Positions 3,773 through 57,372 of a DNA stretch of 64,000 nucleotides are shown here, in pieces (position 1 is the first letter of the stretch; each line of letters starts with the position of its first letter). The notes under the pieces were generated by a model. The model searched no databases and was not told the DNA's origin. It saw only the letters and a program-made list of their open reading frames with translations. Position numbers and translations under genes: made by a program. The DNA lies in assembly GCA_051362555.1 (NCBI GenBank), contig CM120640.1:52802788-52866787 (forward strand). The letters are read 5' to 3'. This stretch comes from Lingula anatina (taxonomy: Eukaryota; Animalia; Brachiopoda).

Positions 3773-4328
3773 CTGAAAGATATAAAAGAAAAAATATTAA
3801 ACCACAGGAAAAAAATGTCCTTACATAAAAAGAACGAGAATTAGTTTGAAATATGTATTGTAAAATACAGGTACACATATTTTCGTGGCAAAAAAATGAT
3901 GTAAGGGTATATAATTTGGAAACAATATATCTGAATACATTTGGAAAAACTCCCAAAATGTATGCAATAAAACTGCTTTGAAATGACTAACTGCAAAGAA
4001 AAAATGTAAATTGTGCAATTGTATTCAAATGACCATTCCTCTGTGCAGAAGCATCAGCTTCACATTTTAATGCTGAAAAGAAAGAACAATACCATTAGGC
4101 CTGGATATTTCATGGTTGTCAGATTACTGTTTTTCTGTGTGTTTTGACATGAACCACCCCAGTGCACAGCACAAAACACCCAAATAAACAGTTTTTGGTA
4201 TGCAAGGTAGTGTTACATGTTTAACAAGCCCTTGCTTTTCTAACCAAAAGAAGAAATGTAGACATATAATCTGGTTTCACATAAATGCAGTTTAAGTCAA
4301 TTTGTTTTTACTTCTTTTGCAACATTAA

Positions 4329-22526: not shown

Positions 22527-23989
22527 ATGTAATTAAGCGGAGACTAACATAGCGCCCTCAATAGAACTGGAGGACGAGATAAACACTCAAGAGCGCGCAG
22601 TATTTGGCTTAATATGGTGTGATATGTGGTGTGATATGAACGTACTTACAATGAAGTGTCAACTTATACAAAAGTCCATGTACTAGGTGACAAACCAAGG
22701 TGACAATCCCTATGCCAATAGGTCACTAGCTCCAGAGCTGATAGTTTACGTCCAAATGTCTATTTAACCTCCAGGCCCAAGAAATTCAAATTTATTAGCG
22801 ACATATAGGCCTACGTTAAAACAATTAAAGTTTATCCGTTTCTGTTCCAGTTATTTTGCCTTGAAGTAAAATGTGCCGGTGTTCACACACACAAGATAAA
22901 AATAAATGAAATTTAAAAAACGCTGATTCTAAAGGAAATGTTTGTTCTCTTCGGTGGAAAATGTTTAAAAAGTCAATTTTTATTCACACTACCCGACTGC
23001 AGTTTCAGTGCATACTGTTCTAGAAATCAGGCTGAGCAAAAACTTCACCATACAGCACTTTTGTTTCAGGTCCTGGCGTGTTGTGAAACAGGGATCATGA
23101 CGTCTTTGTCGAATTATCTATGATTATATCTCAAGTAACGTTTCCAGAGACTGGCATTTAGTTGACGCGTTTGGAAACTTGGTATCAACACTATGTTTTT
23201 AAGAACAAATAATGATTGTGTTTACCTAGTGTTAGTTTAAGGTCTGACGGTTTTTGGGTGTATTGAAAACCTGATATACCCTCGGTTGGGTACCATTGAT
23301 TTAATTAACCCGTCGATCGCATCTGTCAATCAAATGCCATGGATCATCAAATGAAAACACTTCACATAAAAAAAGGGACTTCCATAAGCCACAATTTGTA
23401 TTCCCAACCTTACACCGAACGTTCTTTGAGTGCTTAACAAACAGATAAATAAAAGCTTTTTATCGCAGCTTAACTAAAAGTTTTATATCTCTGTTTTGTT
23501 GTGTATCCCACTCTTTATCGTATCTATGAGCTTATCCCACATGAAGCATTGATATTAGTTAATTTTGCTCATGGTCGTAGCGTTTAAGTTATTGCTACAG
23601 AAATGTATTAGATTACAATGTTTTCCTTCTGTTTTTTTTTTTTCTCTTTAACAAAAGCATAACTTTTATGAGATTTGTAGATCCTAATTACATGTAGTTG
23701 TTTAGAGAGTAAAAATACTGATTTTCCTAACTCGAAACTGTCTTACAAATATACTTTTTTGGGACCGCTATTTCTTCCTGTGGCTACAGTTTGTTTCATG
23801 AATTCTTTGGATTGAATGCAATTTTTGTGTGTGTGTGTGAAAGGGGCTTAATTCCATCATGTCAATAGGATAAAACTGCCCACGAGGCATGAATACTTCT
23901 TTAATGATAAAATACATGGGACAAAACGACAGCTCCACTTAATCATACTAGGCATTTCTGTTTATTTACATATTGCTTTTCATTAAAAG

Positions 23990-31400: not shown

Positions 31401-33628
31401 GGCTATAGATGACCTCAAGATAAAGTAAGTTGTGGAAGACTGCAGGTGGTGATATGCAAATTTTTTTGTGATTTTGTTTAATCTTCAAACCTGAAATCAC
31501 ATAAAAACTTCAATATTACCTGGCTATAATTGTGATACTGTGAAAAGAGTTGAATAGAAGGTATAAACTGGTTTTGTTAATTACATGTATTGGTTGATTC
31601 AAGAGAAAGTTGGCTTGTAGCTAGTGGGGCCATTCAGAATAGACGATCTAAGTACTAACTGATCTGCCGACTAAATATGGACAACCTCACTTCAAAAGCG
31701 ATGCTGCCAATTCTTTGATGGTCTCCCCCCTCTACACACACCGGTGCTGCAGGGGCCTAGCAATTAAACCTCAGAGCTGAGATGTAATCCATTTAATGGC
31801 CTGTGTGGAGGTGGGGAGACCATTGGGAATCTGCGGCATCGCTTTTGAAGTGGGGTTGGCCATATTTATTCGGCGGATCAGTTGGTACTCAGATCATCTA
31901 TTCTAAATGGTCCCTGTTCAGTTGGATTTTGAGCTAGTGTCTGTGAAATATGAACTTGTCAATTTTTAATGTCAGCAATTGTATCTTAACAGTTCTTATT
32001 TTTATATTTATATCTCTTGAGTACACTCTATAGTTTCAATATTTTTGTCATTTCTTCACCCACTAATGGCTTCCAATTTTTTTTATTCAAAGCTCTTCAT
32101 TCCGCATTTTGGACATAGGTTCTGGCATAGGAGGCCCAGCCAGGTATATTGCTCAGAAGACAGGATGCCACATCACAGCTGTAGAACTACAAGAAGATCT
32201 TAATACAGTGGCTACAGACTTGACCAAGAGGTGCAACCTGCAGGACAATATAACTCATGTCTGTGGAGATTTTCTACAAGCAGATTATGGTAAAATATCT
32301 GAAGTTTTGTCTTGCAAAATGAAAAGTAGTTAAATGATATTTCTTATAATTCCTGCATTTCTTGGCTGTAAAAAAGTGAAAATCTTCCTGAGGTGGGGTT
32401 TTAAAAGTTAAAACTTTTCAGCAATAAGAGTGAAACTCTGTGCACCATCAATGTGGTCCTGGAAAGATACATATAAGTTGCAATAGGAAACGACCCAAAA
32501 AATATCTGAGGATAAATTGTCTGTTTTTTTTTCAGTGGCTCAATGCAATCACTAGTCTGCCATTATTCTTGACCCCACTGTACTCCAAATTACTCAAAAT
32601 CTTGTTTGATTTTATGCAAAGTCATGAATTTATCACTGGGCTATCACTCATGATTCCTCTAAAGATACTACTTATGTCTTCTAATTTTTACAGGGTCCGA
32701 AAGCTTTGACCTGATTGTGAGCTGGCTAACTTACTTACACATTCCAGACAAAGAAAAATTATTTGAAAATTGCTGGTATCACCTGAAAAAAGGAGGGAAG
32801 ATGTAAGTCAAGTTTTAGTACAAGATAATTAATAAATACACCAAGTTCCCATTTGAACATACATGAAGATCAAGTGCAGACTGAACAGTTCATTTAGGTT
32901 TAAAACATTGCAGTATCAAAACACTCAGCATTGTTTTATTATTTTCATATTATTAATTTTGCACAGGTTTGCTGCCGACTTTTTTGAGTCCCAACCTTTT
33001 GATTCAGCAGAAATAGAAAAACTGTCTTCAGCTGTCTATGCTTCTGATATACCATCCAAGGAAAGATACATCAGTCTCTTGGAAAGTGCTGGATTCAAAC
33101 ACATAAAAGTAACAAATGAACCAAGTTTTTTGTATCATTTTAATGTGTATTTCAAAGACATTGCTTGCCCTTAAAGCAAACACTATGTACTTTATCATTA
33201 TGGTTAAGTTTGATGGACAGAGTAATTCCGAATTCAATATTTTTAAATAAAATAAATGATTAAAATAACTTATCAAAGAAAGTTATAATAACTTGTTCTA
33301 ATTTATATGGGAACATTTTTATTTCTTATTCATATTGAGCAGAACAAGAAAATTACCAAAGCACTCGCCAGTTTCACCACTGATGTATTCATTTATGTCC
33401 TCTCTTATATAAACCATTTCCTGCATATTTCAGTTTGTTGATGAGACAGAAAAATGGACAGATTTTGTGAAAAGTCGACATGAAGAGTATGTGGCAAACA
33501 AAACACGTCATGTGAGGGTCCATAATGAGGAGGTCTACGCTGAACAAGAGTATTTTTTCTGTGTTGTTCGCAAATTGTTTGGTGGAGGTCACTTGGGAGG
33601 ATGCAATGTTACTGCAGATAAAGTGTAG
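28488..33628 (+). CDS. Class I SAM-dependent methyltransferase, 281 aa, sarcosine/dimethylglycine N-methyltransferase or phosphoethanolamine MT-like. Exons 28488-28539, 29738-29775, 31312-31424, 32093-32289, 32694-32802, 32967-33108, 33434-33628
   Basis: All seven exons join in phase (846 nt including stop). Motif I is ILDIGSGIGGPARYIA; post-I is ITAVEL; motif II is SFDLIVSWLTYLHIPDK; motif III is LKKGGKM. N-terminus MTDPAAEDAKRIKTMKLYSHVDRVYNELKELGY...DQYHYFGTQAV. Substrate assignment is uncertain. Confidence 0.9.
29161..29374 (-). mobile_element. MITE family A, 214 bp (methyltransferase intron 1)
   Basis: CACCCCATTTCCATAGAT...ATGGGAATAGAGCC; TSD TTA/TTA. Confidence 0.9.
29493..29643. mobile_element. 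Foldback element with ~16-bp subterminal repeats (CCGAAGGTTCA[C/T]TGGT) in opposed orientation
   Basis: Four forward units (GATAGTCCGAAGGTTCA...) followed by inverted units (TGAACCTTCGGACTAT). Degenerate relatives at ~1720-1900 and ~4588-4630. Confidence 0.7.
31626..31914. mobile_element. MITE family B, copy 2 (methyltransferase intron 3)
   Basis: GGGGCCATTCAGAATAGACGATCTAAGTACTAACTGATC ... GATCAGTTGGTACTCAGATCATCTATTCTAAATGGTCCC, with internal palindromy (TTCAAAAGCGATGC / GCATCGCTTTTGAA); homologous to 1965-2236. Confidence 0.85.
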
Positions 33629-36926: not shown

Positions 36927-39900
36927 TTATTCCACTGTCTTTTCCTCTAACATTAATGTTTCTTGTGGGAAAAGTTTGAGTTCCTCTAAGGACTTCTCTG
37001 GATCTTGTGTTGATATCTGAAGAAAATAAAGAAACGCATGTTCCAGATACACTTTTTTTAATAAAAAAGACCATCAGGTCCACTTCCTTGTACAATGGAA
37101 ATCCATATAAATAAACCACAGCCATACTACCTGACTTCAAAGACTTATGCTTCCTCTCTAAACACTCCCTATCTGTCACCTATGAACAGAAATGTCTTTC
37201 TTATTCCACTTTTATTTTTTAAAAATTAACTTGAAAAAATGTTAAGACTTCAAATAATTCAACCCACTCCTGTAAAAGAAAGAAAGAGTAAAGAAAACTT
37301 TCCTAGTTTAAATTACATTAACTGAACATGTTAAGAGGACAATTTTTAAATTACTTACATCTCTCCTTGGATACGTTGTTAGCACCTTGTATTCTTCCAT
37401 ATGGTAGCCCTTGGATGTAATAAAGTTCAATAGAATCTGTAAGGGGTGCTTGGCAAGAAATCTCCTTGTAATAAACTCCCCACCAGGTATTCTGATTCTT
37501 AGTATACTGATTGGTTCTTTGCTATCAGCTGGAGGTTCATCTGGTAGCTGGTCTGCTAAAGATTGTTGGATAGCCTAAAGAATCATAAAATACAGTTTTT
37601 GAGCAAACAACATGCATAATGCCTGCATACAACATGGGGATAATGCAATACATCTTTAAACAGAGGTTTTCAGGGGACAATGGGTGGACTACAGAATATA
37701 CGTCGACAGAGATAATACATGTATACATGTTGTAATGGAACGCCTTTGATCCATAGGATGTCTACTAAACTACAAAAAACACAATATGAAGACCCTGTTT
37801 TTTTTTTAATCAATCATTCAGATAAATGGTTCATTTTTAAAATATTTTGTAAAATGACTGTAATGGTTTCACTTAAAGCCAAACTGATACCTCTTTTTCA
37901 GCCTCTTCCTGCTCTCTTTGTAATCTTTCTTCCAACTTTTTCTTTTCCTTCTCTGTTTCTTCTTGAAATCTTTTTTCTTGCTCTAGCCTTTTAGATTCCT
38001 CCTAAAATTACAATGTATTTTCAAAAAAGGTACCCCATGTTAAAAATTGGTTGCTAGTGATAATCAAAATCTGTTTACAAAGATGTTATAAATATGTTAA
38101 CTTGTATTAAAACTAGCATTCCCCCAGCAAGAGTAACTTTTTCGTTTCTCAATTTTTTTTTCAGGTTATTTGACAAATAGTGAGAGATTCTCTACTCAAA
38201 ATGTTATTGATAAATAGAACACTGGCTACTGACACTTCTGAATGATATCAAAGCCCATGGCTGTATAAATTAAGTTTTCTGTAAGTACATTCCTTACTTT
38301 TGCTCTATCAGCAGCTAAAGATTCTTCATATGCCTTGTCCTGCTCAAATTTCACTCTTTCTCGGGCATCTCTTTCTTCCTGCAAACATGTTCACATGCAT
38401 TAAGATACCTACTGTTATTTTTTTGCGAGTTGTATTGTTTTTTAAAAAATTTATTAATATTAAAATATTATTATTATTTTTATGAGGACTAAAACAGAAT
38501 TTACATCTTTATAAAAACCAACTTACTGACCTCCTCTAAAACATCTGCCCTCTGTTGCTCTGTGAAGACATCTACAGCGTTTATGAGATTAGTCATTAGT
38601 TCATCTAGTGAAGCTATCCCTGAAACAGATTTACATCTTTCAAAAAGACACAAAATTCAATAAATTTCTAATCAATATTCAAAGGTTATGTAACATCAAA
38701 TATATTCCTCAATAAATTCTATATCAGTAACATGAAGAATGAAGGCTGCTGATAACAAAGGGATACCCAAATGCCATGATCTCCCCTCTGCCCACAGACA
38801 AATACTGAATATTGCTACCTTCAGAACAAGACTTACCTTGTATTACATTTACTACTTCATTTGTTGATCGTGTTCTTGTAATAAGTAATAAAAGTGGCAA
38901 ATTATCTGTCTTGAAATCCCGTACAGTCTGTGCAGCCATGCTGCCAAACTCCCTTGTGCACATGGTTAAACACCTACAATAATATGGAAAAAAATTACAG
39001 CCAGAGGTACCCAACTACATACTCGAAGTTGCAAGTTAAAAAGTCCATGGCAATAAGTAACTATTTTACACCCAAGTGGAATATTTGCAGTCTGCCATTT
39101 CCATTTTGTGCCATATACTTTTCACCTACCGACTATTCAGACCACCTTTTTCCTAAAATCTGCTGGTCTAAATCAGGATTTACTGTTTAAAAATCTCAAT
39201 AAGACTGGACATTCTCCCCTATTGAACTGATATTAGTAAAAATACAACTTTGATTTCTCAAACAATAACTTCATCTTATTTAGAATCATCAGGTAACAGC
39301 TAAATTTCAGAAAAAAAATTTAAATCAAATTGAAAGTTCTTTTGAAAACTTATACAGAAACATTTATGGCCATGTCAAAACACTAAATTCACACATTCTG
39401 AAAAATCTACTACTCTAAACAAAATTTTATCGGCTGTGGGTACAGGACCAGTGGCTTACATTACAGACTGCATTTCAATGAAAGGTATTTTTAATACCTG
39501 CAAAATTGAGACATGAATTTGATAACTTGATTTCTAGCTATATGGTACATCATGGATGATTAAGAATCACATATTTAAAGATAAAAACATTTACTTTGCT
39601 TTATTGGCCTCCGATGTTAAATCCCAAGCCCAGGTAATAAAGTTATTACTTAAAAAGCTGACCACACTCTCTGAACACAAAATCTGGGAGCAGAAAACAT
39701 TTGCCAGAATACTGCTGTCATGGTGAAGGTAAATAGCCAGAAGCTTTCTCTGAAAACATTAAGAACTGACAAATAATTCAATTTATAAAATTGTTCTTTA
39801 CATGCATCTCAGCATTGCAAGTACGGAATTGTGTTATAACATTATCCAAATTCAAACAAAAAAGCATTTTAAATATCAAAGAATTAATTTAAGAACTTTA

Positions 39901-42900
39901 AACAATTCTACTTCCTTTAATATAACAAAAGGATTAAATTATGATGAAAATGGCTTTTTGGCTTATCCCAAATATATTACAGCAACAACAGAGTTTAAGC
40001 TTCCTCTCACTATAGCAAACAGAAAGAATTATGGGGTTCCATTATTGAAAACAATTAGTCTTTTTAATTGTCAGTGCATTCAGATAATTTTTCATATCAT
40101 CGCAACATTTCATATTTATTTCACATTAATGCATGACTTACATCTTTTGCCTTACAAGCTAAAGCCTCCTTTATTGCATCTTCTAATTTCCCTATGAAAA
40201 ATACAGGATGTATATCTCCATATCTGAAACACAAAAAGATACATCATATCATCATGTCTTGTACTACATTTCTTAAATGAGTACCATGGTTAAACCAAAA
40301 CCTAGAAATTTGATTAATTTCTGGCATATTTAAATTTAGATAAAATTTTGATCTTGATACATAGGCGGATGAAAAATTGCACTTTAAAAACTCCCCCCCC
40401 CCCCCCTCCAGAAAAACTATGTCCTCTTCATATATAAAAACAATTACTATCTGAAGAATATCTAACAAGAACATAAGGTTACATAAGGTTACATTACCTT
40501 TCTGCAAATACTCTGCTAAAGTGTTCTAATGCTGCAACTTCATCACCTACATCATCTGGCACTGAAAGAAAAAGATATCACAATTAAATACAGGACAATG
40601 TCATATGTGCTGCTGTTTGCATAAAACCTCATCAATTATTAACTGGGTTTGGTTTAGATGGAGAAAGGGTTGTACGGTTTACATCTCTCTCTGTCACTCC
40701 AATGAGAGCGGTGCTTGATGCTTCATAACAAGCAAAAATGATTGAAATTGGATTTTTTTACCAGCATTTTATGAACATGTCTCTTTTGCAACAAACAAAC
40801 GCTTTTAAACACTTTAAGCCATAAAGAGAAAATATTAAAAATCCCAACAGGTGATACCTCGTTTCAATATGGCACTTACTTAAAGGCACCAGTTTCCTAG
40901 ACATTGGTACATCTTCATCATAAATGTCATCATCATCCATTGGTAGGGACTCGTGAGCATCTTCAAAATCATCTTCACTGCTACCGACATCCATTGCTAC
41001 ATCCTGACAAGGCGCAAAATAAATTTAAAGGAATCTATGTCACACCTGCTGAACAGTAGAGGCTGAAACTTATAAAAGGACAACAACCAAAACTTTAAAG
41101 AAGTAAAGTTGTGATAAATGTGGGGAGCCGTTTGAAAGTTTAGAATGATAAAATCAGTCATTTTTATTCCTGAAGAAGTGTATCTAATAGGTGAATTACA
41201 TTCACTTTTTATGAGACCATTTCATCATCTCATGCAGCAGTATGTTCTGTTAAGACTTACCATTGGCAGATGCCGCAATCTTGCAGGTTCTCTCTGGGTT
41301 CTAGACACTTCTAAATTATGACATGGGAAACCTACACCACAACCAGCTAATGTCATCTGTCAAGAAAAATGAAGATTAAATGGTATAATCTTTTTCAGGT
41401 AAACAGGAACCAATGCTTTATACAGAAGGCAGTATAAATATGTCAACTAACAAATGAAGGGTTATCCCAATTTGCATTGGGTAGTTATTCAAAATTTGCA
41501 TACTCTTGAAGCTTAAACTCTGTACATATATTAGTAATAAGTTGATTTACAGATTGATATTTTACTTACAGTTTCATCACTGGCAGAGTCTGGCCATCCT
41601 GTCCACTTCTGAAGTCTTACTGGGACATCTATTACATCACCTACATCATTCTTAACCTGAAATAGCAAATAACAAGTTTTAAAGGTGTCATACAAAACAT
41701 GCTGATGCTTACTTAAGTAAGCTTTTTTCTTTCAAACATTTCACTAATTCAACTATTTATGTTAAAGGTTAAAAACAAAAGATCAATAATAGGCATTACA
41801 CATACCAAAACACAAGTCACCTATTAAATATTTATAAAGTATGTGTAAAAGACTATCACTGGTGAAACTGCCAGCTAAACAGCTAATTTACTAACCTCTT
41901 TCACTGTCCTACTGCCAGGGAAATTAAGCTTATAAGTGGTATCCTTGTCTCTGAATCTTATGTTTAATGTGAAATTTTGTGATAACCTTTCCAAAATATT
42001 TGAGCTGAAAAATAAATAATTAAAGGTGCTTTTGAATGGCATTAAACAAAATTAAACTGACTTTTACTTCTAAGCAACATGACAGTATATATTTAAATGT
42101 ATGTAGGGAAAAGTTTTTATTTCTTTTAAGGTGTCCTGAACATGAGAGTTAAATGGTTCACATAGAACAAGATGCACCAAACTGGTGTTGTCATTTTCCT
42201 GTGCTATGCACTTTGCAAAGACAGCAATGATCACTTACCTCTCAGCTGACTGAGAGTTGTTTGTGTCTCCCATATGAGAATACAATCCTGGTGTCAACAA
42301 GTACAGGGTGGTCTCTTGTGGCAGGTTAAGGAGCCTCAGCATGGTCTAACAAAAGGTAAATAACTTGGTTCTTACGTTTTATTATTAAGCATTGGCAGGC
42401 AGTTTCAAGTACAAAGCTACAATAACAGGATAACTATTAACATAAGCTGATTACACCCTGAAAAAGCCCAAACTGTCATGAAATGTCGAACATAGACAAA
42501 TTTCAAAAACTCACATAATCTTCAGCATGTTTGTTAGGAAATCCTCTAAGAACCATCTTCTCTATGGGGATATTCCCTATCTGACCATGAAGTACCTGTT
42601 TGATTGTCTCTGAAACACAAAAAAGTGAATGAACATCAGACTTCCTTCACTAAAACAAAACCCCATTTCAGTAATGTCTAAGAAAGGACACATAGCTTAT
42701 CATGTGACAACTGTATGTGTGAATGAAACATATTTCATCTATACCGTAATACATGACTGTCCTTTACAGACAGCAAGTAAAAACAAACAAGTAGTCAGTT
42801 TGGCCAAAAGAAACAGTGCATGACTTATTTCCCCTTCAACATAATCTCTATAACAACCAAACGAACACACTTACCAACTTTTTCTGTATCCGGAAGCACC

Positions 42901-44369
42901 ACTGGAATATTCCTATCCCTGTATTCCACATTAAAAGTTAACATTCTGGTTGGCGGCGTGCTGTCACGATCAGAGGTCATAGCATGGGGATTAAATACAC
43001 AAGAGCCTGGCTCCTCTTGTGGTTGGGGCTGGAACACTTGATAATCAGGTGGAGGGCTGTCTACAGGTGATCCTAGACCCTGACCCTGGACTTCTAATGG
43101 TGGATAGCTAGCCTCTGATGGCAGTTCCTGGGATCCAAGGTGGGCCATGACACTGTTGATGGCACCCTAATTATATGGAAAAATATTTTTAAAATACCAT
43201 TAGCTGTGCTGAAAAGTTGGGAATAACTGGGAATATCTACAATGATATTCTAAAAGTCAGATTAAATGAGATTTTAATGCAACATGCTTCGAACTCCTTC
43301 AAATTTAAACCAACTTCACAGCCAAGGTCGAGAAAACCTATGCTGGAATACAGTGTCTGATCATCACTTCCCATCAAATTGTCAAAAGAAAGTGCACATG
43401 GACAACGAAGGCAGGTGCAAGTGATGTCCACATACAGTAACATGTCATACAAAAAAGCTAAGGAATATTGTACAGAATTAGTTGAACATAAACAGAATAA
43501 TGTCCAGTTCATAAACCATCATTAAATTTCTTCTAAAAAGCAGGCATTTCAAGTATGCAGTTACCCACTCAACTTAAATATCCAAATCCTTCAACTCACC
43601 AGCAGATTCCATTCATTTTGTTCCAGTACTGCAATGCACTCACCTATGTCTTCAATGTTTGTACATGCCTTAAAAATAAAAAGATCAAAACTGTATTCTC
43701 TGGGTGTGTTATATAAAAACATAACAGGATAACTTAATGTGTCCTTCTTAATATTGGTTTTATGTATTCACTAATCAATGTATAATAACTGAATTCTCAA
43801 AGTTCTTCATTAGTTATTTAATTTGACTGAATAACTGAGCACTCAATTTTATAGACACTAAGACAGCTAGGAAACAAGCAGTGAAATATCTATCATAGAA
43901 ATTTGTGTATTTCACATTTAGAAAATGAAACAATGCTTCTTTTTAAATCAAATAGATCTCATTTTGTCAGAAGCACACTTTTCAGTGACAGAGAGAAAGT
44001 GTTCTTTTGTCTTTACTGAAATTAAATATTCATTTCAGAATGATCAGATAAAGTACCAGAATGTGGAGTAGAAGGGATGAGAACTTCACACACGGTTTAC
44101 TATTTACGTCCAAACTTTATGCACAGACATTTTATAGAGTCTTTTACTCTCGAATGACTATGTGAGAGACTGAGTCATTCAAAATGTTCCATTTCGTAAA
44201 GTCATTATTATCATCTTATATGCTAGAGAGTCCCATATATCCAAAGATCATTTTTCGGTAGATGAATAAAAACCGACGACAGCATGATTCAATGGATAAT
44301 CGTAGAGTTCCATCAGTTTCTTACCTGAAAATCAGCTAAAATACGATTTCTGTCTGAGTCTTCTGCCAT
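36927..44369 (-). CDS. FAF1: FAS-associated factor 1 (UBA, UBL, UBL, UAS, coiled coil, UBX), about 18 exons. Main exons: 44325-44369, 43600-43668, 42875-43166, 42515-42609, 42239-42345, further exons at 41.9-37.9 kb, ~37359-37575, last exon 36927-37016
   Basis: UBA start MAEDSDRNRILADFQ|ACTNIEDIGECIAVLEQNEWNLL; UBL RMLTFNVEYRDRNIPVVLPDTEKV; UAS YGDIHPVFFIGKLEDA and KLLAIYLHHDSSILANVFCSQILC...FITWAWDLT; UBX KVLTTYPRRD|ISTQDPEKSLEELKLFPQETLMLEEK. Internal exon edges are approximate. Confidence 0.97.
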
Positions 44370-45025
44370 TGTTGTGTACTTTCCCTGCGCATGCTCGAAA
44401 CGTTCACTGGCAAGTCGTAATTGTTTATCCTGCAGATAGAAATGCCCGTCTCATTCATAAACGGATAATTTGAGAGTATTGGTGCCTATCTATCTTGGAT
44501 ACTGTGGTTTTATTTAATAATCTGTCCTTAACTTTAAAGATTTTTCACGACATCTACCTGATGCATTTGTTTACACCTTGGAGTGACGTCACTATTCACC
44601 TGCCTGAACAGCCCAAACGTTTGTTTACATTGGACCATGCACAATTACTCACCACAACAAGGCACAATCAATATTTCCCCCTATTATTCGTGAAAGCTTA
44701 CGATCTAATGAGGTTTTTCATAAGTCACTAAATAAACTGTTTGGGTTGCTATTGTTTTTAACAAGACATCTATTTTGCATAATCCACCGTTTTTGAATGT
44801 TGCGCGTCGGTTTCGTACAGAACTTGAACCTCTGCCAAGATCCACTATTATCATCAGTGTTTCACCTCAGAGACTGGCCAATAACGGTTGAGCAGCCCAA
44901 ACAAGTCTAGGCGAACTTAGATCAACTTAGTCATGGGACGTTGAAAATATTTTAAGCCAAGTGCGTCTAGATGCATCTGTATTATATTATGTTCACGATG
45001 GTCGACGGAGTTTTAGACCATAAAG
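44370..45025. promoter_or_regulatory. Putative bidirectional promoter for FAF1 and INK4-SOCS, including an upstream exon of the INK4-SOCS gene ending at 45025
   Basis: CpG-rich. NRF1-like TGCGCATGCT ~44386, palindromic CRE AGTGACGTCACT 44582-44593, forkhead sites TTGTTTAC at 44567 and 44621. A strong AAG|GTGAGT donor at 45025/26 pairs with the acceptor tgttctag| at 45638. Confidence 0.55.
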
Positions 45026-45640
45026 GTGAGTACAATTTATCCTTTTTAAACAGTTCGTCACCTTGATACAATACTAATTGACTGATCCGAATAGACATTG
45101 GATTTCCTCACTCTCGGCAATCAGTCCTAGGGTTTTTTTTAAAAAAAGAAGTAGGCCTTAGGCCTATTTAGAATCCCGTTAAAACACATAGGGTAAAATT
45201 TACTCAGGTTCACCTGTGCAGATTAATATTGGGATTCAGCCAGACCGGTAGAGGAGACAGCTGTTTTCCAGACGCCGGTCTAGTCTTAGCTGATACGCGT
45301 ACGTGGTTTAAATCACCTACCTTTAGATACCTTTGGGGAAAGCAGGGCTCCTTAATACTAGCATCTGTTTTGGAAATTGACCCCCATCCTGCAACGCACC
45401 ATTCAAAGGGAAAGCGTAGAAAAGACCAATTATAAACTTTGACGATGTGGTTTTTTAGTTCCTGGACAAAGCTAAATCAGTTATATCTGTATAAGATCTG
45501 ACTATGAACGATCCTTACGTCTAGGACTTCTTGATGGGTTTATAAAGTACCATGTGTGATTGAATGCACGCCTATCTGTATATAACGTTTATTTATAGTT
45601 TTTTGTTGTCGACTGCTAAAAACATGCCTTTGTTCTAGAA

Positions 45641-48600
45641 ATGACCGAAGAACATGATGCGTCGTTAGAAGAGTTTTTCAATGCCGCCGTCAACGGAAAC
45701 GCTCACAGATTACAGCAACTATTGGATGAGCACCGCATAAATATCAATGCCACGAACGATTGGGGGCGAACAGCAATACAGGTACTATCCTTTTTGTTTA
45801 TTTTTCAAGGTTTTATTTTAACATTTTAATTAAAATTTCAATATACTATTTATTATGCACCAGGAAAATAGCTACCGTCTGCTGAAAGTCCATACAAAAA
45901 AAGTTGGCACTATTTTTCTGGTCTTGCTCCCGTTACGTCTCCAGTATGAAATAAAGACATGTACGAAAAAGCCTGAATGTAGATAATCAAATTATGAGGC
46001 GAAATGACGTGCATGAATTAAAACTCAGTATTCGAAAGGAGGGGTAGCAGGGGTTGGTGTGTCGATTAGGGCAGGAGATGAGGCTCAGAATAAGTTTTTG
46101 TTTGAAGAAAGAGGACAGATGTGTCTTTATATAATAAAGATGTGTCTTTATATAAAATGTCCCCCTTCTTTGTCCACGTGGCTCTTACTATGTATGTCTG
46201 TGTAAGACGGATAATATTGTTTAATCGATGTGTGGGTATCTTAGAATTTTAAAATTTCAATGCATTTTTCAAACAAATATGAAGTGTTTATTGTGAAATG
46301 TTACTAATAATACGGCGCTTGTTTCGTTTTGTATCCTGTGAAAAATACAATTAACCCCTTTCTTCCATTCACAAACATCAAATTTTCATAGGCAAATAAT
46401 AAGTCATATATCATGTCACTTAAAGATGATAGACAATATTTGCTAAATGAGCTCAGAAGTACAATGTTCATATGTTAATTCATTCATTGATAAATAACCT
46501 AGCTTGAAGTGCAGATTAGATATTACGGTTTTTCAGTCAAGAATAGATGCGAGTCACCACACTATGTACAATTTAGTGCTATCACTTAGAACGATAAAAG
46601 AAAACGCCCACTTGTTATCTTTTCTTAACGCCGACAAAACATATAAAGTAAATACTTGATTATGCAGAATAAGCCGTTGAATATTTTGACATATTTGCAA
46701 AGCGCACTGGCTGACCTGTTACTGATAAACGAAATGCTACGCTTTACGCTTCATTTTTATTGTTTGCATAGCACAGGCATAGTACAGGTTTATGAATCAG
46801 TGAGGCGTGCTATCAAGTTTCTTTTTTTCCAAGGGTCTTTTCTATCAAGTGACGATTATCATTTCCTCTTTAAACATCCTTCTTGCACGGTATAAACAAA
46901 TACCCTTCATTAGTTATACAAATTATACTGTATCTTATTTTTCTAGCTTCTAAGTAGCTTCTTCATAGTGGAAGGATTAATTCAATTCAATTCAATTCAA
47001 TTCAATTTATTTCTGTACTGGGACATAGATTGTCATGACCTTGTACAATATGATATACAAATGACGATACAATACAGTTAGTGCATTACCATCTTTATAT
47101 AATGAAGATAAGTACTAGTAAAATTACTCATAAAATATTCTATCTAGGCAATGAGATAAACCTTGATGTGATTATAAATTTACCATAAACATACTATAAA
47201 CATGTTACACAAAAAGAATGTTTTTTAAAAAACTTAAAACCACCGTTACATAGCTGTTTACATGGCTGTTCAAAGCCAGTTTGATGACATTGATAATTAC
47301 GATTAATGACAATTACATAAGACAGATAAGTAAATAAGTTACACAGATATAAATATTGTGCCATGTTAATATATAGTCAAATATGGCCGGCTATTAAAAT
47401 ATAGTTACACACATTTAAATGACTAATATAGATCCTTTCCTTCACTACATAAGCAAACATCCTACATTAAAGATCTTGTGTCTTACTTTTACCAGCTTCT
47501 TTAATTAGTTCGATATGTAAGACTAACATAAAACATTTATTTTTTATTCGTTACACAAAATTAAGCTACTACCGTATACATGTTCATAACCTATGCATTT
47601 ACTGCAGTGGGCCTTTGTGGAAAAAGAAAGTAATTTTTTGTCCATGGAACTATCAGTGGTCTAACTAGAATGGACAGCGATTATGTGTCAACCATGAGAA
47701 ATTTAGTGAACTATATTTAAGTTGGTCTTGTGACATGGGTTTATTTTCCTGTCTCACACTAACTCCACTGAAATGGACCAAAAAATACAATTGCTTTCAT
47801 GTGATATATTTTCACACTGAACAATGAAAAGCGTATCAGTTTTTATAGGAAGTTCAGCTAACAAAGAAAAAAGCAACTTCATTTCCAACCGTAATCAAAA
47901 TAGTTGCATTATTGGGATAACATCGCAGCAAATTATGGTGACAGAATAAATATTCAACTGGATGTAAGGTTTGTGACAGTGTGACAATGGGGTGCGAAAT
48001 CGGGCTTGATATAATGTATATTTACAATGGCATAGGCACGGTGGGTACATTACTCAGTACAATAAGCTCCCATGAAACCGTTACTCCTTTGTTGGCTAAT
48101 ACATATCCCGCTCTACATGGATAAAATACATACTCATGATAAATTCAACTTTGATAAATTTGTTACTTTTGATATTTTTTCTTTTCATAATCAAAGTTGA
48201 TGTAGCAAATCCATTTATGCAATAGTAAAGTTACATGTAGGATGATCATGTATTTTTCATAAAACTTCCTTTTCAAGTTCTTTAAAATCAGTGGTGAACT
48301 TTTCAGGTATTCAAGTGTAGTAGACCAGACATTGCGGAGATCCTCCTAAAGCACGGGGCAGATCCCAACATCCAAGACAAACATTTTCAAGACCTGCATT
48401 TAAGTTCATATCGAACTCCAGCCCACGATATTGCGGAGCAAGGGTTTTTAGACACAATGAAAGTTCTTTTAAAACATGGAGCAGACGTCACTTTACGGAG
48501 CAAAATGGGTTATTCTCCCGCTCACATTGCGGCAGAAAAAGGACGGTTAGATACTCTAGAATATCTATCAGGAGCGATAGACTTAATGAACTGTCGAGCA

Positions 48601-49688
48601 GACGACGGGTCTACACCCTTTGATTTAATTCCAAAATCTATTACATTGACAGACAGACAGAGGACGTGGGTAGAAGCTGAGAAAAATGGTAAGTGCAGCC
48701 GGCAACATATTTTCTGTGCTTGAATAGACTGCCTGCACTCTTCGTGTTTTGGTCTTTTATACTTTTCCCTGAAGGCCAATATTAACTATGAAATACGCTA
48801 TCTCCGTAAGTACGGCATCGTTACTCATTTCGAAATTTTTAGTAGGCCTACAACAAATTAATTTAATGATTTAAGCAATGCGTAGGCCTTTTTGGGTCGT
48901 ATAAATCAAAACAAGTACGTTTTATTTTGGCATGCTTGTAACAAAAGCGCCATGTTTAGCCTGGGGAAGGATGGGGTCGTATGCCCTACCTAATCCCTAC
49001 CCTCTACCAGGGCGAGTGATAGATTTTTTACAGATATTCACAGATATGTCTCTAGATAGACAGATGGTCATTTAGGGCTCTATCTAACTGAGTTGAGCCC
49101 TAAATGACCATCTATCTAGCTGGAGACATATCTGTGAATATCTGTAAAAAATCTATCACTCGCCCTGGTAGAGGGTACCTAATCCCACTGTCTTTCGCAT
49201 ATTTCGTTGCATTCACAGCTCTTTACTTGTTGTTGGGAAAATATCCAATCCCACAGTTTTATTTGTTGTGAAACGAGGGTTCGGCTGTGGTGCGGTTTAG
49301 GCCAGTGTTCTATTGAATTCAGTCCTAAACCTGGAATGTTTGCATTTCCAAGAAAATTATTTTATGCGGTGTAGTATGATATCTACATTGTGCAGTTGTC
49401 TAGCTATTGTATTTTGCGTCAATACGAATAAAATGGATGACAGGGATTTTAAAGAGTATTCACAGACGAAAATTTTCATAATCATCACAAAGAATGAAAT
49501 GTACAATAAAAATTATCTGGCTCGCTCTGTTCAAGTTTTTATCTGTTCTTATTTCAGCGAAGCCAAAGAGTCTCAAATATTTAACAAGACTTCGTATTAG
49601 ACATTGTATGAGACATAACCTCAAACGTCTGCAAACGTTCCCTACTCTGCCACTATCAATCAAGAAATATCTGTTGCTACAAGACTGA
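45641..49688 (+). CDS. CDKN2-like: INK4/CDKN2-family CDK4/6-inhibitor-like ankyrin protein (p18-like, ~5 repeats) with a C-terminal SOCS box, 217 aa. Exons 45641-45781, 48307-48688, 49558-49688
   Basis: NAAVNGN...NINATNDWGRTAIQ|VFKCSRPDIAEILLKHGADPNIQD...TPAHDIAEQGFLDTMKVLLKHGADV...GYSPAHIAAEKGRLDTLEYL, with the INK4-typical RTAxQ|V intron position. A phase-1 G|GTAAGT donor at 48688 joins atttcag|CG at 49558 to give AKPKSLKYLTRLRIRHCMRHNLKRLQTFPTLPLSIKKYLLLQD*. Confidence 0.88.
46979..47011 (-). repeat. (TTCAA)n microsatellite adjoining TTTATT, a typical LINE tail configuration on the minus strand
   Basis: aattcaattcaattcaattcaattcaatttatt reads AATAAA(TTGAA)n on the minus strand. Confidence 0.6.
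48998..49177. mobile_element. 180-bp near-perfect hairpin MITE with a 9-bp TSD (Mutator-like by TSD length)
   Basis: 83-bp arms (TACCCTCTACCAGGGCGAGTGATAG... / ...CTATCACTCGCCCTGGTAGAGGGTA) around a 14-nt loop; CCTAATCCC at 48989-48997 and 49178-49186. Confidence 0.9.
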
Positions 49689-49956
49689 CGGCAGTATTAG
49701 AAAGTGATGAAGGTGAGGTTTTGAACGCGATTCCGTAAAGAAATACACGTCCCTGCGTTTCAAGGATCCTTTTTCTCCATCACAGTAGCTCTGCATGCCT
49801 GATGTTTCTATTACTAAAATTTTATCAGATGGTTGTGTTACTATGTACATTTCCTCCCTTTGATGCTGTCTACCATGTGCGAAATTGTCTAATTTTGAAC
49901 CTCAAAAGCGAAAAAAGAATAAAAGTAAATATATATTGAACTGGTGATATAAAAAT

Positions 49957-50000
<44 letters not shown>

Positions 50001-50264
50001 TGAGAAACCCGTATGATTGGGTTAACCTGTGTACAATCACGAGGATTGCTTTGTCCGCATAATGTTAGTCATTATACGTGGGAATTAAAACTTTGTACAG
50101 CTGTTTTGTACATTTCAATCAATCGATCTTTAAAATATCACACTCCTTATTTATCTATCTAACTGTGATATGTTTTATGGTTTAGCCAGTTTCTTCTTTA
50201 TTTTCTAGATATCTTTCCTGTTCCGTGCCGTTTACGCAGGTTGAAAAGAAAGACGAGGTGCCGA

Positions 50265-50429
50265 GAAGACCCAGTTGCTTGGGGTCAAATTTACACCATT
50301 AGCAGATGCTATCTAATATTACGTGTATATTTGACCCAGTGTTGATACGTGTGAAGACCCAGTTGCTTGAGGTCAAATTTACACCATCTGCTGATGCTCT
50401 CTAATATTACGTGTATATTTGACCCAGTG
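50265..50429. repeat. 88-bp tandem duplication (about two units), each unit with an internal inverted repeat
   Basis: GAAGACCCAGTTGCTTG.GGTCAAATTTACACCAT...TATATTTGACCCAGTG starts at 50265 and again at 50353; GGTCAAAT pairs with ATTTGACC within each unit. Confidence 0.9.
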
Positions 50430-52389
50430 ACGGAGTTGTAAAGGGAAAAAACGTGATATACCTAATTATTCTCAAATGATCTCATAGCAAGAGTTCAGTT
50501 GAAACGATATTCTAGTCCCTGTTGTGGATTTCCATGTGAAAGTGATCTCGTCAACCGTTTACAGTCCGAAGCTTTGATTAGTGCATTTAAAAAATAACGA
50601 CAAGCTGTACTCATACGCACTCTAAAATTTGGGACAACAGAAATCTTCACAGTTCTTGAAAGGAAAATTAGTTTAGCTTTTATTAATTTATTTATTTTGC
50701 GTGAGAAGACGCATCATGTATTTATTTACTAAGGAGGTCATTCACACCTATTGTTAAATTTAAAATATAGCTCTTATCGAGATTTTTAGTTTCGTTGTAA
50801 ACATTTTAATGAAGGGGGGTTTATAGACAGTATATTATGTGGCTTTATTTTTGTGTAATTAATGTATTTCTTCGTAAGGCTTTTGTTCTTTTGGATTATT
50901 TCGATATTCTATAGAAGAGTTTTATCTGTCAAAGCTTCTGTTTTTAATTGTTGAAACTTCACAATATTGTGTAACCTGTAGGCCTACAATCTATCTTAGA
51001 ATTAAAACATTAAAATAATCAATATTGATAAATCTTTAAAAATGCATTTTTTAGCCTTACAAAAACTTTTTTGTGCATGTGCTTATTATCCTTAAGTTTG
51101 CATTTTCCTGCCTGATAACACTATGTATATTGATCTAAAAGAGTTGACTCGTAAAACCTATTCACTTACAGATAGTGAGTCTCTTAGGAATTATTGTATC
51201 ATGCAACTACAACAAGGACAGTAAACATCATGTCCAAGTGAAGGGAGAATTAAAAGTGCTCTTCCCTGTCTTTGAATAGTCCGCATACATAAACAGACGA
51301 ATGTTTCAGAAAAATACAATGGTGTGCTAATTTTTATGCATTCGCCTTTCATTAAACGCACCAGGCTTTGACAAGGCGTGCGAACCAACTACTTTTATCT
51401 TTTTGCAAAATATTTTTGTGCCACGTATGCTTATTAGCTTACAATGAACTAAATATTCATTTGCATACAAATAAAAGCTGTGATATGAAAATGATTGATA
51501 CTAAATATATATATTTATGGATATATATATATATATGGATTATGAAATAATAATATTTCGACTCGCACTTCTATAGAATATCATCTATTCTAAGCAGATT
51601 ATTAGAATAACCAAGTACAAGTCGACACGTTATATTACATTTTCTTTTACATTTCACCAATATGAGCAATGAAATATTGAAAATATCATTGGCAAAGACT
51701 GCACATCCAAGCGTGATTCAGAAAGAAAATGTGAAAAGTTTGTCCATATTCAATGTGAAACACACAAAATTGAAAGGTAGCTGTAACACCTGTCGCCAAA
51801 ATCACCCGATGCTCTTCTCATTAGTCATGCAAGGACCGGAAATGGTCTATATAGAGGTTTATCTTTGATTCACTGGGTAACACAGCTTGTGGAATGCAAA
51901 TATATGAAAGGCATTTTTTTATGTGAATCTTTTACGTTTGATGACTGCTAGTTATGTTAAAAGGCCCTACAGTACCAGTATGCCTACCGGTACTTTGTCC
52001 CAAGTGTGGGGTTAGTAAACATGGGTATTTCCAATTTCATCAAGGACTACATTATTTAGCTTTTTATTGGGCCCAAAGCCATGTTTTTCTTCCACTAGGT
52101 CTATCTCCAACAAGGTGTTCAGCACAACCCCTCATAACTCCTTCCTTAAATATCCAGACTCGCCAACAAAAAACTGAATCAATGTTGAACATCTACATAC
52201 CGGTACGTGTGCTATTGTGCCAATAATCTATGGAGAAAATGTCCTAAAACTGTCTCACTGGATTGAGTTTAGATGTACCTATAGAGCTACATAACATTAA
52301 AGAGTGAAGAATTTTCTCACAATTCAGTTTACTTTAAATAATGAACTGACATCCTTGTCTGTCGCTAGTTACTAGCACAGAGAGGAAAG

Positions 52390-53085: not shown

Positions 53086-56000
53086 ATGGCAGAAAATGAA
53101 AGAATCGAAATACTAACCACTGCTGCAGCGAAAGGCGATGTCAACAAACTGCAAAATTTAATTGAAGCGAGGAATGTCGACATTAATGGAGAAAATCAGT
53201 TTAAAAGAACTGCCATTCAGGTAAGCATTTCGTTCTTTGTTTATTTCGAAAATATTCTTTAAATCATCTAAAAAGCGTTTTTTTTTCCTTTTCTAAAATT
53301 CACGACCAAACTACTTCAACATTTTAACGTTTTAATTCTACTTCAACATTTAAACATTTTAATTATATCTTTATATTTTTTTATTATTTCACTTTTAAAG
53401 TATGACGATATGCCTTTAGTATGAACTGTATTTAATATGAGTCCATCTCCTCAGTTGATATTTACCATCAAATCAAGAGTGTGAACAAAAGTTGGAGTCA
53501 AATAATATGAGTTTAAATCCGTACATTTCTAAAAATATTGATAATAAAGCCAATCATATTTTTTTGGGTTACATAATCATCATAATCATCATTATTACAA
53601 AAGAAAAGATGAAATAATCATTTGTAGAAATTATAAGTCATCAGCGGAGAATAAAACAAAAGTTTGTAAACAACATACATGTATATATCATTGGTATCAT
53701 TTCTGTAAAATTTCAAAAAAGTTCTATTCTCTGAATCATACCTATATAAAATATTAAATTCAAACTCCCTCTGGCAAATGTCTCCTTTATATTTAATTTT
53801 ATCAATACCTGTGGCAGATTTAGGGGGATGTCTGACTCCCCCTTCGATTTCTGACAAAAAAAAAAAAAAAAAAAACAAAAAAAAAAAAAAAAAAAAAAAC
53901 AGTGGTCCCCTCTTGAAATTAGAACTTTGACTAGCTGAATCATAGTTCTAAACCGTATCAAAAGGCTCCGTTCGCCCTCTTAAATACCAAAATATTTTCG
54001 GGCGAACCGAACCCCACGCTAAGGAGGGGGGAGGTGGGGCGAGGATCGGCTTCGTACCCGCGGCCTGTCAATCCTAAAAACGGACTCCCCCCTTCAAATA
54101 ATCCTGGATCCGCCACTGAGTACGGTGTATTTTTTCTACAAAGCTGTTTTGTCATGGTCTACATGTATACTTATAAGCAAGCACGCTGTAATTTGTTTCA
54201 TCTTTTTCAGTTTTATTTCCATAAACAAAGTGAATAGATTATTTCACAGGTCGTTGTGTCTCAGATCGATGTGTTGTGTTTTAAGACATGGCTAAACCAA
54301 TTCCTTACCTCTTATTTACAATTTCTGTCCATATTAAATGGAAATATTTTCTCTATGTTGCATTTAAGGTCAAGAAGGAGCAATGGTTATTAATAACAAA
54401 ACGGAGGGGAAATTTTATAAAAAATGTGGACAAAACTCATTCTAAGGGGGTTTGAGGGAAACATTTTCATTTCCATGTTGTAGGCCTATTTACAACAATT
54501 GCACATCTTTTTTGTTAGAAATCCAAGTAAAGCTTATAACAGGCCTTTATTATATAGTCATAGTCATCACCTATCTTTATACAATTATACATGCAATTAA
54601 AAAATTAAGCTAATTGAATATTAGAGTGACAACATATACCAATTGTATTTTGCCTGTCAAAAGTGTATACGTACCTTTGCAGCAGTACTAAGGTAACCTG
54701 GTATCCATATGTATGTTTACGAGGGATGTAAGTTCGATTCCTCTCAACTGTCAAATGTATTATTCCTTTCGTTTTCAGTCCTTTTTAATTAGTATCATAC
54801 TTACGACAAAGACTGGAAGGCCCATTGGTTTTTATATATTCAGTAAGTCCATTGAAAATCGTATGTTTACATCAATGTAACCGCCACATATCCTAACGGT
54901 CAAATGTTGCTTGGAAATTCATTCCTCCTCTTTGATCTACACGCTTCTCTCAAGTAAATCACAAACCGATATGCTACCATTAGGCTCTCTAAATTTAAAC
55001 TGATATCAATATAATTACAAGTTTCTGTTAATGTCATACTGCTGTCAGACTGGTGCTTGTTCATGTAGCAGTCTGTAGCAAAATTTTAAATAAATGCCGC
55101 CAGAGGGCATAAACATTAGTTTTGGTTGGGAAATCCCCTTTCCCAGGCTATAAATATGGTATTCCAACTACTATGTATCAAGAAAATATTTTATTCTGAT
55201 ATGCATTTTTTTATAAGTACAAAGGGTCTAAAATCATATTTCAGTTTATTCTAAGAACCAGTGCAAAGAAGCCAGTCCATTGGTACTTGTCACTTTAACA
55301 TACACCACATGCGAAGCCGTGTTATAACAGAAAAAGGAACGAAAAAGAAAGATTCAAATATGCATTCATGTCACTATTTTACAGTCTTGTCATATTACAA
55401 ATCATGTATCACGTATCATTTTAATATAAAGCTTCAACTTTTTGCGAATCAACCGCTACAAACAGTCGGCCATTTTACCTTATCAATATGCAAACGGAAG
55501 AACAGGGCCATCTCAGTCACCTGCCGGATGTCGTTGTTAACAAACGCATTGTAAACATATGTTTTAAAAGATAAAGGCATGTTTATTGATGGGCTTAGAT
55601 AAATCAATTCCAACACTTATAAAAGTGCCAGTAATATAGAGAAGTAAAATACAAGTTCTGTCCGATTTTTGTGACTGCATATTGAAAATAGAACAGCACT
55701 ATTGAGAGCGTCCCATTGCCCGTCACAGGTCTAGATGTCTCTTCAAATATCTGACTGTTGCAAGCAGTTAAAACCGCAACGACCTTGTAAAGAATGTCAC
55801 CATTCTTAACATTCTTACTGACAATGTTACTGATTACATGGCGTTTGTCCAATTACCGTTGGATTTTCTACATTTCTTTGTGGTTGGCAGTGTTGATCCG
55901 CTCAAGTTATCTACATTGAACACGATGTGCATGTGGCTTCAACGCTCTCACTGGTTACAAACCAAAACAAGCTGACTTAAATAAAGTGATTTGATCTCAC

Positions 56001-56354: not shown

Positions 56355-57372
56355 TTATTATTATTATTATTTATTTATTTTATTATTATTATTTTTTTTT
56401 TGTAGGAGCTGAGCACAATGATTTCTTTTTCGTAAAACTTACACGTTTCTCGACAATATGGTAAACTTCCGGATTTATATCACTTATATACGTGGAGTTT
56501 TGTCTTTCGCATAAAGGATGTTAAATTAATATTTAAAAAAGAAACAGCAATGATATAAGAAAAAAAAACAATATACAATAGTTGGCCTCTTTGCAGCCCC
56601 ACAAATGAAAATATGTGCACCATTTGTTTGAATATTTATTATTAATGCTGCAACATTACGTAATTTTTATTACTCAACGTCATTTAATGCTATACAATAA
56701 CTTTACACCATTCCTGAACTAGAAGGACCTTTCAATAAAAGCGGCCACCGGGCACCGATCAAATTTCGAACACCATACTTGTGTTTGTCCTTTACCTATG
56801 CTCTCGTCTGGGTTAATGAGGAGATAAAATACATGTATTTCGTTGAGAGATTTCGGCCTGTAAATGCACCAAAAACGTTACCCCGAATAAGAATTCTGCC
56901 TGACATATCAAAGATATGATAGGGTCAATCGTTGATGCAAGGTCTATAAAATACTACCGTGATACTGGAGAACAATTGGGTTGCTGTCTTTTATGCTTAA
57001 GTAATGAAAAAGAACTGATCGTTGCAATGAATGCATCTAAGATTTTTCTAACTACTGCTACCATTATTACTACTACTATCATTATTATTTATAATTATTA
57101 TTTCTTTTATGAAGGTGTGCAACAAGAGCAACAATAAACTAGTGCAATATCTGTTAGAAAGAGGAGCAGATCCAAATAAGCCGGACCCAGCCACAGGGAC
57201 TACCCCCGCCCATGATGCTGCCAGAGACGGCTGGTTAGAGTCCTTCAAAATTCTTGTCCAATATGGCGCTGATCTCACCATCAAAGATAACTATGGAAAT
57301 ACTCCCGAAGATTACGCCATTAAATGCCAGCGTCTTGACATACTGAATTATTTGTCCGAACCAAATAATTGA
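53086..57372 (+). CDS. CDKN2A/B-like: Second INK4/CDKN2-family gene, p15/p16-like (4 ankyrin repeats, 130 aa). Exons 53086-53220 and 57115-57372
   Basis: MAENERIEILTTAAAKGDVNKLQNLIEARNVDINGENQFKRTAIQ|VCNKSNNKLVQYLLERGADPNKPDPATGTTPAHDAARDGWLESFKILVQYGADLTIKDNYGNTPEDYA. DPAT..P.HDAAR.G.L is characteristic of p15/p16. Donor CAG|GTAAGC, phase 0. Confidence 0.9.
53809..54118. mobile_element. Related CAGTGGCGGAT-type MITE in the intron of the second INK4 gene
   Basis: CTGTGGCAGATTTAGGGGG ... CCTGGATCCGCCACTG; GC-rich interior in an AT-rich intron; no clear TSD. Confidence 0.6.
56300..56401. repeat. (TTTTA/TTTA/TTA)n low-complexity tract
   Basis: Read directly from the sequence. Other simple repeats: (AAT)n ~790-818, poly(A) 22491-22522, (GT)n ~26425-26448 and ~57932-57971, poly(T) 49957-49999 and at the window end. 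Confidence 0.9.

Follow-up and report, generated by a model that had tools for sequence, protein, structure and literature searches.

An INK4-family protein with a C-terminal SOCS box in the brachiopod Lingula anatina, and a possible degrader origin of the p16/p18 family

Does an INK4 protein that ends in a SOCS box simply inhibit CDK4/6, or might it also have the kinases destroyed? The question is raised by a gene in a 64,000-nucleotide stretch of the Lingula anatina genome (assembly GCA_051362555.1, contig CM120640.1, positions 52,802,788 to 52,866,787; hereafter the window, whose own numbering is used throughout). Vertebrate INK4 proteins are stoichiometric inhibitors. The original prediction, made from the letters of the window, had read the gene at 45641-49688 as an INK4-type ankyrin protein fused to a SOCS box and as a candidate natural CDK4/6 degrader. 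Our analyses indicate that the gene is a member of the INK4 (Cdkn2) family and that its tail, judged by sequence homology, is a SOCS box. We put at about one half (0.5) the probability that the protein is a substrate receptor which binds CDK4/6 and brings the kinase to an Elongin BC-cullin ligase for ubiquitination.

The three predicted exons (45641-45781, 48307-48688 and 49558-49688, forward strand) have GT-AG ends and join in frame into 217 codons, as had been proposed, and their product is 100% identical to residues 20-236 of XP_013397037.1, the 236 aa RefSeq form that NCBI names 'cyclin-dependent kinase 4 inhibitor D [Lingula anatina]'. The residues that complete this form are added by an upstream exon, which the original gene model had missed along with an intron in the 3' untranslated region (UTR) and a second INK4 gene described below. 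The coding part of the upstream exon (44971..45025, forward strand; 5' end not mapped) agrees with the N-terminus of XP_013397037.1 and holds in-frame ATGs at 44971, 44989 and 44998; residues 1-20 have a predicted local distance difference test score (pLDDT) below 50 in the AlphaFold model. Ankyrin repeat 1 and the start of repeat 2 lie in the next forward-strand exon, 45639..45781, which includes the ATG at 45641 and ends in RTAIQ at a phase-0 intron. Repeats 2-5 occupy 48307..48688 (forward strand), an exon that contains D107 (= p16 D84) and ends at a phase-1 intron, and the SOCS-box exon (49558..49688, forward strand) encodes the BC box SLKYLTRLRI and the cullin box FPTLPLSIKKYL before a TGA stop. 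The motifs RTAIQ|V, HDxAxxGFLDT, PKSLKYLTRLRIRHCM and LPLSIKKYLL were all found where they had first been placed. The 3' UTR begins in the SOCS-box exon (49689..49712, with the next intron donor 24 nt past the stop) and, after an intron at 49713-50208, continues in a last exon at 50209..51400 on the same strand, whose end is approximate and taken from read depth.

Splicing was examined in eight RNA runs carrying the Lingula species label, 6-30% of each run being read and junctions being listed from 3 reads upward. The key join from exon 2 to the SOCS exon, 48688>49558, was recovered in runs X4 (3 reads) and X9 (4 reads), as the original prediction anticipated for a transcript that includes the last coding exon. 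At these settings it was not listed in X1, X7, X5, X6, X8 or X3, of which X1 and X3 hardly cover the gene. The remaining joins were seen in X4 and X7 (45781>48307, 3 reads each), in X5 and X6 (45025>45639, 6 and 3 reads) and in X4, X5 and X6 (49712>50209, 3, 2 and 6 reads). The transcript carrying the SOCS exon is real and expressed. Reading through to TGA 48723 was considered as an alternative to splicing and rejected as the main form. In the stranded run X4, depth is 6.6 in exon 2 and drops to 0.6 in the bin that contains its boundary, a value that the exon portion of this bin can explain by itself. A minor read-through form may exist beside the spliced transcript. High intronic depth comes from repeats that attract reads of other loci, mostly at 90-95% similarity and with loose ends.

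The ankyrin part resembles p18 and p19 most closely. For the full AlphaFold model (mean pLDDT 86), p18 and p19 fill the first five Foldseek rows (33-37% identity), followed by ASB8 (23%) and ASB9 (19-21%). The domain is thus nearer to p18/p19 than to ASB8/9 (19-23%). The VIA comparison with p18 gave a Z score of 19.5 and a root-mean-square deviation (rmsd) of 1.7 with 153 residues aligned. The ESM Atlas placed CDKN2D first by structure and ASB clusters first by features, which is what an INK4-SOCS hybrid should give. Sequence searches of the PDB with exon 2 of either INK4 gene in the window returned mostly DARPins and ankyrins, and in a search of 50%-identity representatives 149 of the 150 best matches were long ankyrin arrays (at least 787 aa).

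Gene architecture and linkage agree with the structural matches in supporting the INK4 identity first proposed. Yuki et al. 2024, in the part of their text available, recognise Cdkn2 genes by a Q|V intron (Q50|V51 in p16 numbering), an equivalent of D84 and linkage to FAF1. The Lingula gene has the intron (CAG|GT at 45781, with the RNA join in X4 and X7), and H106/D107 of XP_013397037.1 correspond to p16 H83/D84 within the HD..G motif and are invariant in 11/11 orthologs; Yuki et al. count this protein as a true Cdkn2, and their Table S1 lists both Lingula D84 and Cdk4/6 R24 as conserved. FAF1 adjoins the gene head-to-head on the minus strand, in the neighbouring position that had been assigned to it. 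Where p16 has M53, which looks onto the active site of the CDK according to the text available of PMC5681435, Lingula has Lys, as does human p18, and an 8-residue loop insertion in the exon at 48307..48688 is common to other lophotrochozoans. The trees built here included no vertebrate INK4 or ASB rows; in that of Yuki et al., as far as their text is available, all Cdkn2 candidates are reported to form one clade with the human CDKN2s when compared with 73 human ankyrin proteins that include ASB9.

The SOCS-box assignment was examined by profile searches and by structure. Against Pfam SOCS_box (PF07525, cut-off 23.5 bits) the last exon scores 30.5 bits (E 4.4e-7) and the whole protein 25.7 bits, so this check of the original prediction came out in its favour. 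A profile of ten ortholog tails, with Lingula left out, ranked the SOCS exon first of the 2150 open reading frames (ORFs) of the window (E 7e-6; next 0.43). A profile of 8 tails found 11 sequences in the PDB at E up to 10, every one a SOCS/BC-box protein (ASB8, ASB7, SOCS2, PCMTD1, ASB9); searched singly, the Lingula tail gave one PDB match, at E 2.4 and unrelated. Modelled alone, the tail is predicted to form three helices (5-17, 21-24 and 32-38), the three-helix fold of SOCS boxes, and within the full-length model it reaches a pLDDT of 84-91. Foldseek returned ASB7 as the sole row for the tail model (E 0.9), and its top two of 48,161 chains were ASB9 (Z 4.3, rmsd 2.6, 40 aligned) and SOCS1 (Z 3.5).

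Within the tail, the residues expected to contact the ligase are partly canonical. The BC-box pattern given in the available part of PMC3355856 is (S,T,P)LXXX(C,S,A)XXX-hydrophobic; in SLKYLTRLRI the S, the L and the hydrophobic residue fit, and the C/S/A site is occupied by Thr, as the caveat to the original prediction had pointed out (LKYLT). The Cys is kept in Saccoglossus, Glandiceps, both sea stars and abalone, and human ASB8, whose structure was solved with Elongin BC, has Ala at this position. The Cul5-box motif is LP-hydrophobic-P (PMC4812663, part available), and human ASB9 binds Cul5 through LVLP (PMC3779351, likewise). The corresponding Lingula region, FPTLP, retains the last Pro and the I-x-x-Y-L helix with an insertion, and it fits the Cul2-box pattern too; the equivalents are LPLP in Glandiceps and FPLP in Patiria. 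The intron before the SOCS exon contains a 182-bp near-perfect palindrome (48997-49178, 164/182 positions self-complementary), a MITE-like (miniature inverted-repeat transposable element) repeat with many reads from other loci. In the SOCS exon itself the RNA runs differ allelically at no fewer than four positions (49562, 49601, 49638 and 49655), with two silent and two replacement changes by codon reading and none listed at the Thr codon.

The architecture is not specific to Lingula. Single-protein homolog searches returned the protein's own record and one unspliced ortholog exon only, and the orthologs came from an alignment search. In the survey of invertebrates that the original prediction had called for, five of the 12 full-length orthologs scored above the Pfam cut-off: Lingula, Saccoglossus (36.1 bits), Glandiceps (38.1), Acanthaster (31.4) and Patiria (40.2). 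Three of four abalones fell just under it (18.7-19.9 bits, E up to 0.002). No SOCS match was obtained for six unspliced exon-2 gene calls (0/6), as expected without exon 3. With leave-one-group-out profiles, 10 of 11 tails beat all 500 shuffles and the eleventh beat 499, the siboglinid margins being small. By eye, 32 of the 60 species rows in Fig. S1b of Yuki et al. have such a tail, eroded in several; they include six sea urchins, six sea stars, Dimorphilus and 13 gastropods, and most of the remaining rows are truncated or end where the SOCS exon would start.

Deuterostome and lophotrochozoan orthologs carry the tail in the same position; it is seen in hemichordates, sea stars and abalone and, in a degenerate form, in siboglinid worms. 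The points at which unspliced protein models break off suggest that the position of the phase-1 intron is common to other phyla as well. Since the box occupies the same place in both groups, a single ancestral origin is simplest by parsimony, and the box was probably present in the INK4 of the bilaterian ancestor and is missing from those of chordates. The original prediction had offered two origins, an ancestral E3 adaptor or a gain by exon shuffling; the shared position across phyla supports the ancestral branch and does not support a shuffle specific to Lingula. In Strongylocentrotus purpuratus, Lytechinus variegatus and Asterias rubens, RefSeq lists X2 isoforms that end before the box, and these echinoderms may use splicing to make the protein with or without it.

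A second INK4 gene lies in tandem 3.4 kb downstream. Its two forward-strand exons (53086..53220, ending KRTAIQ at a phase-0 intron, and 57115..57372, encoding DPATGTTPAHDAARDGW with the stop after repeat 4) form an intact gene for 130 aa with four repeats, the same Q|V intron and no SOCS box. It is p15-like, and a possible splice acceptor lies just 5' of its ATG (~53074). Among the proteins compared its best matches are Cdkn2s, at 39-45%; it is without the lophotrochozoan loop insertion and has HDAARDGW in common with amphioxus. No reads were found in 4/4 RNA runs mapped over it, all of adult type, and the ortholog alignment search gave no database copy. Trees placed it outside the lophotrochozoan group with 80/88 support on a long branch, and a sister relationship to the SOCS gene was not rejected (p-AU 0.12); in these trees 6 of 13 intended outgroup rows had dropped out and vertebrate and ASB rows were absent.

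The second gene is apparently unannotated and missing from the published survey. Table S7 of Yuki et al. lists one Cdkn2 per species and a '?' downstream of the Lingula Cdkn2. In Haliotis, Patella, Gibbula and Strongylocentrotus the same table places ankyrin genes 1-2 genes downstream of Cdkn2, labelled Psmd10, Ankrd1, Ankrd65, Ankrd52 and Ank1, and these may be unrecognised box-less INK4 paralogs. Chordates would then either have lost the box or have kept a box-less paralog like the second Lingula gene. We give slightly less than even chances to the broader proposal that the p16/p18 family began as a Cullin-5 ligase receptor destroying CDK4/6, with most invertebrates that keep the gene retaining the degrader and chordates the box-less inhibitor only, after loss of the exon or retention of a box-less tandem paralog.

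The binding and catalytic steps of the mechanism are all ones that we infer. The ankyrin face very probably binds and inhibits CDK4/6, by analogy with vertebrate INK4s, and the C-terminal box would most likely recruit Elongin BC and Cul5-Rbx2 as in the ASB proteins. Binding of the BC box to Elongin C is highly likely in the canonical orthologs and, with Thr in the motif, rather likely in Lingula. The cullin would be Cul5-Rbx2, a choice based on the orthologs with LPLP or FPLP; the PTLP of Lingula also fits the Cul2-box pattern. Ubiquitination and degradation of the bound kinase would then follow, and the block would become a catalytic and lasting one. A synthetic CRBN glue that recruits INK4-CDK4 dimers to a cullin ligase shows such dimers to be degradable, according to the portion available of a preprint (bioRxiv 2026.06.19.733443). 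More speculatively, if the family did begin as a degrader, the ancient head-to-head link to FAF1, a UBX-domain p97 cofactor, might reflect a degradation pathway common to both.

Several results weigh against the reading of the Lingula protein as a ligase receptor for CDK4/6 and against its antiquity. The exon 2-SOCS exon join has thin RNA support (7 reads, in 2/8 runs), the structural Z scores of the tail are low (4.3 and 3.5), and the VIA Z score for p18 is just ~1 above those of designed ankyrin proteins. The Thr lies outside the BC-box pattern published in PMC3355856, and the tail has no clean LP-hydrophobic-P Cul5 motif as described in PMC4812663, both as far as the text of these papers is available. 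Four of the 12 full-length orthologs, Haliotis rubra and three siboglinid-type proteins, are without a Pfam SOCS match, and erosion of the box is plain to see in siboglinids, caenogastropods and sea urchins; on both grounds, constraint is weaker on the box than on the ankyrin part. No tail is present in three amphioxus models, in the crinoid Anneissia (Fig. S1b) or in the four human INK4s, the amphioxus and Anneissia cases being those that count here. The Anneissia model is without D84 as well as the tail.

Other readings of the same protein have to be considered. The box might bind Elongin BC and a cullin and yet mainly set the inhibitor's own level, through stabilisation or self-ubiquitination, with CDK4/6 only inhibited. 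We consider this unlikely, at a level that still commands attention: INK4A and INK4C fell along with CDK4 in the CRBN glue study (bioRxiv 2026.06.19.733443), some SOCS proteins are weak for Cul5 and function without the box (PMC3355856), and two sea urchins and one sea star have box-less RefSeq isoforms, whereas an ankyrin domain followed by a C-terminal SOCS box is the layout of the ASB proteins, in which the ankyrin domain recognises the substrate (PMC3779351), all three sources being cited from the parts available. It is improbable that the box is ancestral and survives in Lingula as a degenerate relic that assembles no ligase. The exon is intact, in frame, spliced and above the Pfam cut-off, both invariant Leu residues and the P-x-x-I-x-x-Y-L helix are kept, and the pLDDT in the full model is 84-91; the Thr at the conserved Cys, the one-residue insertion before the cullin-box Pro and the erosion in several other lineages are what such a relic would have in its favour.

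A shade less probable again is an E3 receptor for something other than CDK4/6 itself, whether a partner of these kinases (cyclin D, for example) or a protein unrelated to them. Co-conservation of D84 and R24 points to CDK4/6 as the direct partner (Yuki et al. 2024), and D-type cyclins were not found with the INK4-CDK4 dimers described in bioRxiv 2026.06.19.733443, in each case within the text available, although a p18-CDK6-K-cyclin ternary complex is known (PDB 1g3n) and lophotrochozoan orthologs have an additional loop, at least 8 residues long, beside the CDK-facing repeats. That the protein is an ordinary ASB-family member merely resembling INK4 seems very improbable indeed. Its ASB-like domain layout and the first rank of ASB clusters in the ESM Atlas feature search are set against the INK4-specific intron, the HD..G motif, the FAF1 linkage, p18/p19 as the best structural and single-stretch natural sequence match, and the single clade of Cdkn2 candidates with human CDKN2s in the available text of Yuki et al. 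2024. INK4 proteins may themselves descend from an ASB-like ancestor. A CDK4/6 receptor at an Elongin BC-cullin ligase is the reading we prefer.

FAF1 was located at 37314..44369 on the minus strand (not fully mapped), with its ATG at 44369, a UBL exon near 42828-43166 and a UBX exon near 37314-37574. It matches human FAF1 in the PDB (E 2.7e-5; UBX 47.8 bits) and is covered by opposite-strand reads with a loose end at 44324. The FAF1 and INK4 starts are separated by no more than ~600 bases, in divergent orientation (44369 to ~44970), both genes are expressed in X5 and X6, and the stretch between them is probably a bidirectional promoter. Beyond FAF1, the window holds methyltransferase exons (32067-33625, forward strand; Methyltransf_25, pemt in Table S7), a laminin N-terminal domain exon (3357-3986, minus strand) and two long forward-strand ORFs, one of 762 codons (17583-19868) with a weak, below cut-off Dapper match of 21.6 bits and one of 592 codons (23987-25762) with no Pfam match, perhaps parts of the same gene.

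What is new here is confined to the recognition of the INK4-SOCS architecture and its age, since the literature already has the gene as a Cdkn2 and pipelines had tagged the domain. Databases carry a precomputed PF07525 on XP_013397037.1 and on four of its orthologs, and the UniRef name of the Patiria protein is 'SOCS box domain-containing protein'. Among titles and abstract starts in the open-access literature, subscription journals being outside the search, no listed title concerned an INK4 with a SOCS box. Should the ancestral form have a box that recruits a ligase, removal of CDK4/6 may be how echinoderms, hemichordates, molluscs, annelids and brachiopods control G1, and the vertebrate INK4 would be a derived form, contrary to the textbook view of a pure stoichiometric inhibitor. 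INK4-based degraders of CDK4/6 would also have a natural template in such proteins, and the 2026 molecular-glue preprint, in the portion available, shows that this route is workable; Elongin BC-Cul5 is conserved in human cells.

Among known systems, the closest to the Lingula protein are p18INK4c (CDKN2C) and p19INK4d (CDKN2D), which likewise have five ankyrin repeats, the Q|V intron and the D84 equivalent at 33-37% identity and an rmsd under 2 A, CDKN2C also lying head-to-head with FAF1; unlike it, they end after repeat 5 with no SOCS box. The protein itself, XP_013397037.1, appears in Table S1 and Fig. S1 of the invertebrate Cdkn2 study (Yuki et al. 2024, Genes Cells, PMC11555623), whose journal text mentions neither SOCS box nor ubiquitin nor degradation and whose 17 supplements, the Fig. 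S1 tree page (an image) not being covered, have SOCS only as the neighbour gene Socs5. The Elongin BC-Cul5 receptors ASB7, ASB8 and ASB9 share the ankyrin repeats and the C-terminal SOCS box and give the best sequence and fold matches for the tail, whereas the ankyrin part of ASB8/9 is only 19-23% identical and that of Lingula is INK4-type; a search of the open-access literature turned up no ASB that targets CDK4/6. The nearest functional parallel is the CRBN glue NE26394, by which, in the part available of bioRxiv 2026.06.19.733443, CDK4 is degraded via INK4-CDK4 dimers at a cullin ligase, much as proposed here. There the recruiter is a synthetic small molecule acting through CRL4-CRBN on human box-less INK4s, whereas in Lingula the recruiting element would be encoded in the inhibitor itself.

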